Assembly (NCBI GenBank): GCA_038244685.1
Contig: JBBRTD010000001.1
Span: forward strand, 166,392-230,391
From: Minisyncoccia bacterium
Lineage (GTDB): Bacteria; Patescibacteriota; Minisyncoccia; Phycocordibacterales; UBA9973
Reading direction: 5' to 3'
Length of the DNA stretch: 64,000 nucleotides
The notes beneath the pieces are model-generated. The model saw nothing but the letters and a program-made list of their open reading frames with translations. It did not search any database and was not told where the DNA came from. The position numbers and the translations under genes were made by a program. Of the stretch, positions 21,090 through 23,259 are shown one piece after another; the stretch's first letter is position 1; each line of letters begins with the position of its first letter.

Positions 21090-21983
21090 TTAGTCATCAT
21101 CTCCACCTCTAGTAGTAGGAGCTATAACTGAATTTGTTTGAGTAACGGCTTGCTGACCAATACTTTGATTTACATTTCCTATAAAATAAGCAGCTAGCAT
21201 ACCAGTCGCATTTGATGAATGATTTTTGCCACCAGCAGTGCTTGTCGCATTCGGATCTTTCGTCATATAGGCATCAGTTGCATCAGTTCCGCAAGTGGCA
21301 GCCATAACGCCATTACCTCCTGGATGTGAACCGAAGAAACTTGTAATATTATAAACCTTACCACTAATGAGAAGGAAGCAATCTGATGATTTATTATGTT
21401 TGGCAATTTCGGTCATATTTAAAACAATGTTCCCCGTCGGAACAACAACTGGAATCTTTACAGTAGAAGTATTTTTGACAGATGTTTTTGATGTTGAAGT
21501 TTGATCAGCAACAGAATTAACATTATTACTTGTAGACCCTATAGTTTGATTGAGGGTCCCTAGATAATATGCATCTAGCATACTCTTCGCATTTGATGAA
21601 TGATCCTGTCCGCCGGCTGTGCTTGTTGCATTTGGATCTTTGGTGGCATAAGCATCAGTTGCATCAGTTCCACAAGTGGCAGCCATAACGCCATTACCTC
21701 CTGGGTGTGAACCGAAGAAACTTGTAATATTATAAACCTTACCACTAATGAGAAGGAAACAATCAGATGACTTATTATGTTTAGCTATTTCGGTCATATT
21801 TAAGGTTAAAGTTCCCCCTGATGGATTAACAGCCAAAATAGTATCTTTAACTAAATTAGAAGCCGAAGCATTCGAAGCAGATTGATTGTTCTTATTATTC
21901 TGATAAAAAACTAATCCGGCAGTAAGAATAGCGGTTAGAATTACTCCAAATATAAACAATGATACAGTTGCTAATTTTTTCAT
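21090..21983 (-). CDS. Membrane-anchored protein with two tandem cytochrome b5-like heme-binding domains (start taken at MKKLATV)
   Basis: Twice-repeated block LNMTEIAKHNKSSDCFLLISGKVYNITSFFGSHPGGNGVMAATCGTDATDAY (HPGG heme-binding signature). Repeats are near-identical at the DNA level. Confidence 0.7.
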   Translation of the reverse strand: MKKLATVSLFIFGVILTAILTAGLVFYQNNKNNQSASNASASNLVKDTILAVNPSGGTLTLNMTEIAKHNKSSDCFLLISGKVYNITSFFGSHPGGNGVMAATCGTDATDAYATKDPNATSTAGGQDHSSNAKSMLDAYYLGTLNQTIGSTSNNVNSVADQTSTSKTSVKNTSTVKIPVVVPTGNIVLNMTEIAKHNKSSDCFLLISGKVYNITSFFGSHPGGNGVMAATCGTDATDAYMTKDPNATSTAGGKNHSSNATGMLAAYFIGNVNQSIGQQAVTQTNSVIAPTTRGGDDD

Positions 21984-21987
21984 ATAA

Positions 21988-23259
21988 TTAATTGAAGCTA
22001 AAATCTTCATAATGAATTTTTTTAATATCGACACCTAATGATAAAAACTGATTTTTCAAACTTTCCATAAGCATTGGAGGTCCGCAAAAGAATATCTCTT
22101 TATCCACCAAGCCATTACTTAATCCTGAAACTAGCCCAGCATTTATATAACCTCTTTCATTGGCATTCCATAAATTAAATTTGAAGTTGGAATTATTTAC
22201 TGATGTGGTTTGTAATTCATTAAGATAAACTGCTTCTTCTTGTGACTTTACAGAGTAATAAAAATCAACCCTGTATTCATCTTCTAAGCTTTGAACCATA
22301 CTATAAAATGGAGTAATACCAATTCCACCTGCAATCCAAATTTGATTTTTACGAGAAACATTTTTATACGAAAAATTACCATAAGGACCATCAACTAAAA
22401 CTTCATCGCCTTGTTTTAAATTACTTAGTCTACTTGTGTAATCACCAAGATTTTTAACTGTAATTTTTAAATTATTATCAAGGTTAGATGATGATAAAGA
22501 AAAAGGATGTGATTCAGATGAAACATTGTTACTTTTAAAACTAAAGAAAGCAAACTGGCCAGGAGTAAATTTCATACTCTTTACAACAGGTTCCATTTCA
22601 ACTTCTAAAATATCTAAATTTAACTGACGAAGATTTTTAACTTTATACATTAATTTCTTAACAACAAATTTACTCAAGAATGCTTGGCGAATACTTACAA
22701 CTAAGCCGATAAAAGCAAGTAAAAATATATAGGAGCTTAATAAATGATTCCTTGAAATATCACTAGAGATAGTAAGAGTATGAATAACCCCAAAAAAGAA
22801 AGCTATTACCATGAATTTATGTGAGAATTTCCAAATATTATATTTTAATTTAATATAGAAAGTAAAACTGATTAAAATAATCATTAAAAGCAAAGAAAGA
22901 ATACCCCAAGTAATAGGTGTATCAGTGAAAGGAACAAAAAACATAGCAGCTTGTTTAGTGGAAATAACCAAATATTTAACAACAAGGAAAAGTGGGTGGA
23001 ATAAAAGCATTGAGAAAGATATAGCTCCTACCCTGCCATGATTAGCATAGACCTTATCTAAACCATTAAAATATTTATCCAAAAATTTAAATTTGCCAGC
23101 TAAAATAAGATTAATAGAAAATAGGGTCATACCAACTAAACCAAGAATCTGCCCTATGCTAGTTGTTATAGAATTTAAATCTGCAAATCTCGGAACGATT
23201 GGGGTCATAAAACTCCAGATAATAATTGGTATAATCGATAAAATATAGATAATATTCAT
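21988..23259 (-). CDS. Ferric-reductase/NOX-like transmembrane flavoprotein (FAD/NAD-binding)
   Basis: 6-TM domain with His pairs, HPFSLSS (FAD site), GPYG, IAGGIGITPF (NAD-binding). Confidence 0.75.
   Translation of the reverse strand: MNIIYILSIIPIIIWSFMTPIVPRFADLNSITTSIGQILGLVGMTLFSINLILAGKFKFLDKYFNGLDKVYANHGRVGAISFSMLLFHPLFLVVKYLVISTKQAAMFFVPFTDTPITWGILSLLLMIILISFTFYIKLKYNIWKFSHKFMVIAFFFGVIHTLTISSDISRNHLLSSYIFLLAFIGLVVSIRQAFLSKFVVKKLMYKVKNLRQLNLDILEVEMEPVVKSMKFTPGQFAFFSFKSNNVSSESHPFSLSSSNLDNNLKITVKNLGDYTSRLSNLKQGDEVLVDGPYGNFSYKNVSRKNQIWIAGGIGITPFYSMVQSLEDEYRVDFYYSVKSQEEAVYLNELQTTSVNNSNFKFNLWNANERGYINAGLVSGLSNGLVDKEIFFCGPPMLMESLKNQFLSLGVDIKKIHYEDFSFN

Follow-up and report, generated by a model that had tools for sequence, protein, structure and literature searches.

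We have analyzed a stretch of 64,000 nucleotides (the window; all coordinates below are positions in it) taken from contig JBBRTD010000001.1 of a Minisyncoccia bacterium (assembly GCA_038244685.1), and we describe here a pair of adjacent genes located on its minus strand. The first codes for a flavocytochrome similar to the NADPH oxidases (NOX) and the second for a membrane-anchored protein with two cytochrome b5 (b5) domains in tandem. It is probable, in our view, that the two genes form an operon encoding an NAD(P)H-driven transmembrane electron-export chain, in which the b5 protein would be the immediate electron acceptor. Domain content, motifs, fold, conserved synteny, a membrane anchor specific to the partner and relatives with a fused version of the same design all point in this direction. 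Only one b5 gene and one NOX-like gene are present within the 64-kb window (GC content about 34%), and the nearest homologues of both proteins are found in genomes of the Candidate Phyla Radiation (CPR) of Paceibacteria/Nomurabacteria type (named Nomurabacteria/Paceibacterota). The parts of the pair are the following (TM, transmembrane; pLDDT, the per-residue confidence of the AlphaFold2, AF2, model; HMM, hidden Markov model).

21988..23259, minus strand: NOX-like flavocytochrome gene of the SpNOX type ("long-form" bacterial proteins with a ferric reductase domain, FRD), 423 aa (open reading frame; Pfam Ferric_reduct/FAD_binding_8/NAD_binding_1; full-length match to the Streptococcus pneumoniae NOX, SpNOX)
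22675..23259, minus strand: six-helix transmembrane di-haem domain (aa 1-195), predicted ligands H74/H88 (TM3) and H147/H160 (TM5) (hydropathy, positive-inside pattern, His conservation)
22366..22650, minus strand: FAD-binding lobe (aa 204-298) with the HPFS motif (Pfam FAD_binding_8 at 204-295; H251-P252-F253 kept in at least 95%)
22045..22338, minus strand: NAD(P)H-binding lobe (aa 308-405) with AGGIGITPF and CGP (Pfam NAD_binding_1 at 309-401; motif conservation)
21090..21983, minus strand: membrane-anchored tandem cytochrome b5 gene, 297 aa plus stop (open reading frame, Pfam, homologue alignment)
21894..21983, minus strand: N-terminal signal-anchor helix (aa 1-30, MKKLATVSLFIFGVILTAILTAGLVFYQNN) (AF2 helix 2-35; anchor HMM)
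21534..21815, minus strand: cytochrome b5 domain 1 (aa 57-150), axial H93 (HPGG)/H128 (HS), Cys75/Cys104 (Pfam, alignments, AF2, fold match)
21435..21533, minus strand: Ser/Thr/Asn-rich inter-domain linker (aa 151-183), predicted disordered (pLDDT <50 at 152-180; poorly conserved)
21153..21434, minus strand: cytochrome b5 domain 2 (aa 184-277), axial H220/H255, Cys202/Cys231 (Pfam, alignments, AF2)
21093..21152, minus strand: conserved C-terminal tail with an acidic run at its end (…TNSVIAPTTRGGDDD) (conserved in the consensus of alignments A1 and A2)

The pair and its conservation across genomes

The NOX-like protein matched three Pfam families above the cut-off (Ferric_reduct, 7.5e-13; FAD_binding_8, 7.9e-14; NAD_binding_1, 7.2e-10). 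Its best relative of solved structure is SpNOX (8qt6/8qq7; E 1e-43), and the similarity, a match at the HMM level, extends over the full length, residues 34-398 of 8qt6 aligning with residues 39-422. We located the motifs HPFS (H251), GPYG (291-294) and AGGIGITPF (310-318). Among 40 homologues HPF, GDxT, GPxG, AGGxGxTPF, CGP and the four haem His were at least 95% conserved, and so were, residue by residue, A310-G311-G312, G314, T316-P317-F318 and C392-G393-P394. The four His are invariant in alignment A3 and are spaced as in NOX, H74 and H88 being 14 residues apart and H147 and H160 13 residues apart; the printed alignment sets the His of the NOX-like protein opposite both TM3 His and the first of the TM5 His in SpNOX, whose ligands are numbered H69/H83/H129/H142 (PMC11564096). 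Hydropathy gives six hydrophobic segments. The loops rich in K/R (54-76 and 139-149) fall on the same side as the tail, a charge pattern that suggests the topology of NOX, in which both N-terminus and dehydrogenase domain are cytoplasmic. The initial annotation had described a six-TM reductase binding FAD and NAD, with the motifs HPFS, GPYG and GGIGITPF, and Pfam, hydropathy and motifs agree with it. The families that it expected were also recovered (Ferric_reduct, FAD_binding_8 and Cyt-b5), the NAD lobe being matched as NAD_binding_1. Beyond the four ligands we found no conserved His in the TM domain of the 40 homologues (H172, the one other His there, is conserved in only 23%), and therefore the protein lacks the O2 centre that eukaryotic NOX form with a further His and an Arg. 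The same is true of SpNOX (PMC11564096).

The b5 gene starts 4 nt after the TAA stop of the NOX-like gene (21988-21990), with the ATG at 21983. Alternative GTG and ATG starts located upstream would give proteins of 306-314 aa, and we preferred the ATG at 21983 because the homologues open with MKK. Pfam recognizes two Cyt-b5 domains in the 297-aa protein, each with its HPGG (1.5e-38, 131 bits over a cut-off of 23.7). There is a single TM segment at 7-25, with KK on its N side, and a low-complexity linker joins it to domain 1. In this case too the earlier description, of a membrane-anchored protein with two HPGG-type b5 domains encoded 4 nt downstream, agrees with Pfam, the single TM segment and the coordinates. 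Both domains were modelled by AF2 with pLDDT values of 85-95, and the top Foldseek match of the model was 1CXY (TM-score 0.90), followed by about 50 b5 structures. This protein, a cytochrome b558, is also the best sequence match of the b5 domains in the PDB (7e-14), with both Cys aligned. In 1CXY the two Cys presumably form a disulfide; a check of the literature did not confirm this. The axial pairs H93/H128 and H220/H255, together with two Cys per domain, are invariant over 68 b5 sequences. Each domain reads as a classical bis-His cytochrome b5, with haem binding predicted. We also predict that both domains sit outside the cytoplasmic membrane because of the charge bias of the anchor, the N-termini of some related single-domain b5 proteins (which, read by eye, look like lipoprotein-type leaders) and the related giant proteins in which b5 domains are interleaved with Ig-like and fn3 domains.

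The search yielded 273 b5 homologues and, in addition, colocalisation of pFre and cyt-b5 genes in CPR has been published, so that the initial remark that Cyt b5 domains are uncommon in bacteria is not apt for this lineage. We have examined the neighborhood of the b5 genes in a sample with one genome per species (b5-first sample). A NOX-like gene was directly adjacent and on the same strand in 40 of 77 loci, 36 of them in the order NOX then b5 and four in the reverse order, with gaps mostly between -4 and +32 nt. Another 11 loci were too short to judge, and the 23 without a NOX-like gene corresponded mostly to distant single-domain b5 proteins. In the opposite direction (NOX-first sample), metagenome contigs were binned by the identity of their NOX-like protein to that of the window, and a b5 gene was found immediately downstream as follows.

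NOX-like identity at least 60%: 6/6 loci
NOX-like identity 44-59%: 7/9 loci
NOX-like identity 37-43%: 17/30 loci
NOX-like identity <37%: 3/21 loci

That is, at identities of at least 44% the b5 gene was downstream in 13 of the 15 testable loci, and the partners were of both the single and the tandem form. The NOX-like gene followed by the b5 gene is a conserved two-gene module.

In the loci compared, no other neighbour of the pair is conserved beyond local housekeeping synteny. A larger conserved operon was considered, given that some Paceibacteria have recurrent downstream genes, and rejected because these genes (methyltransferase, glutamate racemase, UvrD-like helicase and PheS/PheT, as read by eye from the sequences without a family search) represent housekeeping synteny. 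Hidden b5-like partners were also sought among the small open reading frames downstream of NOX-like genes lacking a b5 neighbour and discarded, the Pfam matches being tRNA_bind, FKBP, YdjM, DUF1232 or nothing.

The pairing extends beyond CPR, since one contig labelled Micrarchaeota (L038) carries a b5/NOX-like pair (7998-9769) together with an archaeal-type uS3 gene. The pair also appears on two more contigs with archaeal labels (L040 and L042); L038 and L042 have it the other way round, with b5 preceding NOX.

The membrane anchor of the b5 protein has the consensus MKKLxTISLFIFGVVVTAILxAGLVFYQNNK, a conservation unusually high for a signal anchor. An HMM of it gave at least 15 bits with 29 of 40 b5 proteins encoded next to a NOX-like gene and with only one of 43 non-adjacent ones, and in that single case (L044) there is a NOX-like gene 4.6 kb away. 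The motif is kept in distant adjacent pairs (the archaeal L038, L019 and L041). No fusion of NOX and b5 was found among the 120 best NOX homologues. There are, however, distant relatives from high-GC metagenome contigs, 31-32% identical to the NOX-like protein of the window, in which the Ferric_reduct+FAD+NAD core is fused to a C-terminal cytochrome c domain with the motif CGDCH (L144:2464-4293, L148:3244-5736 and L150, ~2186-4681). All three have the same order, i.e., NOX core, RRRRR, an extra TM helix, an S/T/A linker and cytochrome c. They show the design of the NOX/b5 pair in one chain, although as a single polypeptide with a c-type haem instead of two proteins with b5.

Three further observations concern the b5 proteins themselves. 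The tail consensus …QQxVTxTNxVxxPxxRGGDDD is common to the homologues, and this acidic tail (21093-21152, minus strand) might serve for docking or for the binding of cations. Ahead of the HS motif, at aa 115-125 and 242-252 (about 21609-21641 and 21228-21260), there is an insertion of 7 residues (within …DPNATSTAGG…); it is present in the Paceibacteria-type proteins and missing from 1CXY and from the remoter NOX-linked b5 proteins. Finally, there are giant multi-b5 proteins on CPR and DPANN-labelled contigs that are not beside a NOX-like gene and could be "wires" of several b-type haems. The most elaborate is a 1624-aa predicted surface protein (L027:7395-12269, plus strand) with a DoxX membrane domain, five Cyt-b5, five Big_7 and five fn3 domains; L026:7092-9533 has four b5 domains, and L039:7848-9941 (labelled Woesearchaeota) and L033:7989-9437 (labelled Pacearchaeota) have three each.

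Proposed electron path and alternatives

Putting together the homology to SpNOX, the match to 1CXY, the synteny, the anchor and the cytochrome fusions, an extracytoplasmic electron-transfer chain, as was suggested at the outset, is the reading with the best support. We envisage that a hydride from cytoplasmic NAD(P)H would be passed to the FAD of the 423-aa protein, and that single electrons would then move from FAD to the inner haem (H74/H147) and on to the outer haem (H88/H160), crossing the membrane as in SpNOX. The 297-aa partner would be kept beside the NOX-like protein by its conserved single-pass anchor, probably in a complex, with its two bis-His domains carried by flexible Ser/Thr/Asn linkers on the outer side of the cytoplasmic membrane. 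It is these domains, and not O2, that would be the immediate acceptor of the outer haem by direct transfer, and their haems would relay the electrons to an external oxidant. Haems of b5 type usually lie far above the O2/superoxide couple. From this general redox chemistry, our preferred guess for the terminal acceptor would be one of higher potential, such as chelated Fe(III)/Cu(II) or a metalloprotein outside the cytoplasm, over the reduction of O2 to superoxide.

Several points weigh against this proposal. The topology is predicted from hydropathy, charge bias and analogy only, and the argument about the acceptor uses general b5 chemistry. Since close relatives were the source of the HMM, relatedness confounds the anchor test. 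Many distant NOX-like relatives have no b5 gene, so the core presumably works alone or with other partners. No terminal acceptor or metal transporter is conserved beside the pair in the loci compared. Besides, CPR bacteria are generally thought unable to make haem, and such an auxotrophy leaves unexplained how four haems, two of them outside the membrane, would be loaded.

Among the alternatives, the one that survives best is that the 423-aa protein works on its own as an NAD(P)H oxidase converting O2 to superoxide or H2O2 (to scavenge O2, or to target a host as a weapon or signal), with b5 as an accessory, e.g., a regulator or a superoxide sink. We find it unlikely. Every motif of the NOX catalytic core is certainly present, many relatives lack a b5 neighbour and the closest solved relative, SpNOX, oxidizes NADPH in vitro with O2 as acceptor (PMC11564096). 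But its authors doubt that O2 is the physiological acceptor and suggest that there is a potential acceptor protein; its outer haem is solvent-exposed and it reduces cytochrome c directly (PMC11564096). In the protein described here, a second conserved His that could form an O2 centre of eukaryotic type is missing from the TM domain, and a mere accessory fits poorly with so close an operonic coupling, with an anchor specific to NOX and with relatives fused to a cytochrome.

We also had to weigh the genes found on the other side of the b5 gene. A copper cluster located at 16726-21017 on the plus strand converges on it and codes for DUF305, CopA (a P1B-ATPase with HMA), a membrane protein HMA-DsbD_2 and an anchored Cupredoxin_1-like protein. 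Between them there is the following element.

21032..21078, no strand assigned: strong hairpin separating the b5 stop from the convergent copper operon, with an A-run and a U-run at its sides (dG -25.4 kcal/mol)

The hairpin has a z of -7.3, and none of 200 shuffles reached equal stability; it is likely a bidirectional intrinsic terminator shared by the b5 pair and the copper operon. The pair could then be a cupric (or ferric) reductase serving the copper cluster, reducing external Cu(II) for detoxification or trafficking. The convergence of both operons on one terminator hairpin fits this idea, as does the activity of the eukaryotic relatives FRE and STEAP, which reduce Fe(III) and Cu(II) (PMC3591440). 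The same arrangement is found in L003, L004, L015 and L016. These are, however, the closest relatives and the only loci where the copper cluster adjoins the pair, PGM, TruB and IF3 being syntenic there too, while in the remaining ~35 loci the pair lies beside unrelated genes. In addition, cluster and pair are on opposite strands and hence not co-transcribed. The proximity to copper genes pointed out in the initial annotation is real, but the functional link is weak; we discarded a functional operon with the copper cluster and hold a dedicated copper reductase to be decidedly unlikely.

Very improbable, to our judgement, is a role of the b5 protein in surface capture or storage of haem for a haem-auxotrophic cell, supplying the NOX-like protein without any redox relay. 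It would suit bacteria generally reported to lack haem biosynthesis. Apart from the NOX-like protein, the operon has no predicted haem protein but b5, with domains predicted to be external. Yet both axial His of the classical electron-transfer b5 are invariant, which implies a tightly bound six-coordinate haem, and the cytochrome c haem of the fused relatives is covalent and so cannot be donated.

The repeat in the cytochrome b5 gene

The two b5 domains are encoded by a direct DNA repeat (21157-21422 and 21538-21803, with a spacing of 381 nt). The copies had been described as nearly identical. The repeat is real but the description is wrong, the overall identity being 87% (35 mismatches over 266 nt), and only a core of ~159 nt reaches 93%.

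21648..21806, minus strand: homogenised core, repeat copy 1 (codons 60-112), 93% nucleotide identity to 21267-21425
21267..21425, minus strand: homogenised core, repeat copy 2 (~159-nt core; mismatches cluster outside)

Of the 53 codons of the core, 44 are identical, eight differ by synonymous changes and one by a non-synonymous change, whereas the 38 codons that follow have a nucleotide identity of 73%. There were 8 mismatches in 156 positions inside the core and 27 in 110 outside (Fisher p 5e-6), and the longest identical run measures 53 nt (permutation p 0.008). The linkers of the two copies differ and the reading frame is intact.

We have compared these domains with those of the other b5 proteins. 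Among the best 120 homologues, 84 have two domains, 33 have one and four have three. In the two-domain proteins the nearest neighbour of domain 1 was the domain 1 of another protein in 66 of 84 cases, and that of domain 2 another domain 2 in 76 of 84; the partner domain of the same protein was the nearest in only three cases. The close relatives P0002-P0004 follow the same pattern, with identities of 89-90% between first domains and 87-93% between second domains, over 79-83% for cross-position comparisons. The two-domain build is family-wide and the domains group by position, so the duplication predates the diversification of the family and is old, contrary to the recent internal duplication proposed originally. 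The identity of the core in other genomes goes from 52% to 86% and does not track relatedness to the window. As near-identity is local, with a mosaic of similarity and a core level independent of relatedness, we read this as recurrent gene conversion between the b5 repeats, with this genome probably among the most recently homogenised.

The 327,635-nt NCBI contig encodes the identical b5 protein, and two independent Logan short-read contigs that carry the NOX-like gene (L001 and L002) have the same start of the b5 gene. By coordinate mapping both stop at window position 21729, within the 53-nt identical run. Such ends are what an assembler breaking at a true repeat would leave, which argues that the repeat is not an artefact of assembly; together with the two-domain homologues, these contigs indicate that the tandem repeat is genuine. 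We therefore give practically no credence to a recent duplication private to this genome, or to an assembly duplication. The 87% identity over 266 nt and the 53-nt run could suggest one, but the two-domain build of most of the best homologues, the grouping by position (also in the higher same-position identities of P0002-P0004) and the mosaic divergence between copies with different linkers and an intact frame rule it out.

Surroundings, comparable systems and meaning

Regulatory signals around the pair were scarce. A scan for consensus promoters remained at background (16 seen, 15 expected), and an AAGGAG sits 23 nt upstream of the NOX-like start, an excessive distance for a canonical ribosome-binding site. 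Response regulators, sensor kinases, ApbE and FMN_bind were all lacking among the scanned neighbours of the pair in the window, and the comparison of loci gave no additional gene that repeatedly accompanies it.

Elsewhere in the window we found a tRNA-Ile with anticodon TAT (UAU) at 6436-6510 (plus strand). This tRNA is uncommon in bacteria, where AUA is usually decoded by a lysidine-modified CAU tRNA. There is also a tmRNA gene at 9179-9571 (plus strand), with the predicted tag peptide ANKVASVKSPYSFGFAGFAPAFA. At 9910-12604 (minus strand) the gene of a C-5 cytosine DNA methylase (11537-12604) shares 11 nt with that of a 545-aa HATPase_c_3 protein (9910-11547), and the two may be a restriction-modification or defence pair.

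The closest precedent is the work of Tamarit et al., who reported 185 CPR genomes with a Cyt-b5 gene within 10 kb of pFre, found TM helices in all partners and proposed a membrane complex of CPR-specific function (bioRxiv 10.1101/2021.11.17.468889). Those clusters, like the pair of the window, have a PF01794 gene colocalised with a PF00173 gene, here at a distance of 4 nt. Their proposed ancestral state, however, includes a Tyr-ligated MAPR-like cytb5MY, extra b5-like genes and a two-component system, whereas the window has a classical bis-His tandem b5 and none of these was found nearby. Colocalisation was unseen outside CPR in that work, and here the pair also appears on the contig with the archaeal uS3 gene.

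SpNOX resembles the window protein in its size of ~400 aa, its six TM helices, the two haems held by four His and the FNR-like FAD/NAD(P)H domain. It has no reported protein partner (PMC11564096), while the window protein comes with an operonic b5 gene. In the "MsrQ-like" systems of Méheust et al. (2021), PF01794 di-haem proteins, often with a C-terminal PF00175, feed electrons from NAD(P)H to an extracytosolic redox protein encoded next to them; some are linked to iron assimilation, most of them come from Actinobacteria, and in CPR flavinylation is rare (PMC8238504). They share with the window pair a PF01794 membrane protein with an NAD-binding domain, but their acceptor is an FMN-binding protein flavinylated by ApbE, in place of which the window has haem b5, with no ApbE or FMN_bind nearby. 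By analogy, the pair would work like these systems without being a member of them. A similar comparison can be made with MsrPQ (YedYZ) of Gram-negative bacteria, where a haem membrane protein of the ferric reductase domain type supplies a specific partner in the periplasm with electrons at its exposed outer haem, as proposed here. MsrQ, however, lacks the FAD/NAD domain and is fed by quinol or Fre, and the partner it serves, a molybdoenzyme, has a defined substrate. As for the b5 protein, the Ectothiorhodospira vacuolata cytochrome b558 (1CXY) has the same His in HP… and HS and both Cys, and is a bacterial b5 of the secreted (periplasmic) kind. It consists of one soluble domain, though, and the window protein is anchored and tandem, with the insertion before HS.

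The gene pairing itself had already been reported in CPR by Tamarit et al. What is added here is the link to the missing acceptor of SpNOX, the partner-specific anchor, the relatives fused to cytochrome c, one archaeal occurrence and the concerted evolution of the tandem domains. Conserved across CPR and in at least one DPANN archaeon, the pair is a candidate answer to the question of the missing SpNOX acceptor.

CPR and DPANN are believed to have neither respiratory chains nor cytochrome c maturation, and are regarded as strict fermenters. A wider idea, which we advance tentatively and consider rather doubtful, is that CPR bacteria and DPANN archaea may use the non-covalent b-type haem of cytochrome b5 domains as an extracellular electron conduit. 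The NOX-like protein would be the entry point, and anchored proteins with one, two or many b5 domains would act as a wire dumping fermentative reducing power onto external or host-derived oxidants, which would give the SpNOX-type homologues their protein acceptor. The surface proteins with several b5 domains, interleaved with Ig/fn3 domains, reach at least five of them (L027). If electron export is true, these supposed fermenters would have a route to external oxidants, which bears on their metabolism and host dependence, and the pair would represent a haem-b counterpart of the flavin- and cytochrome-c-based extracellular electron transfer.

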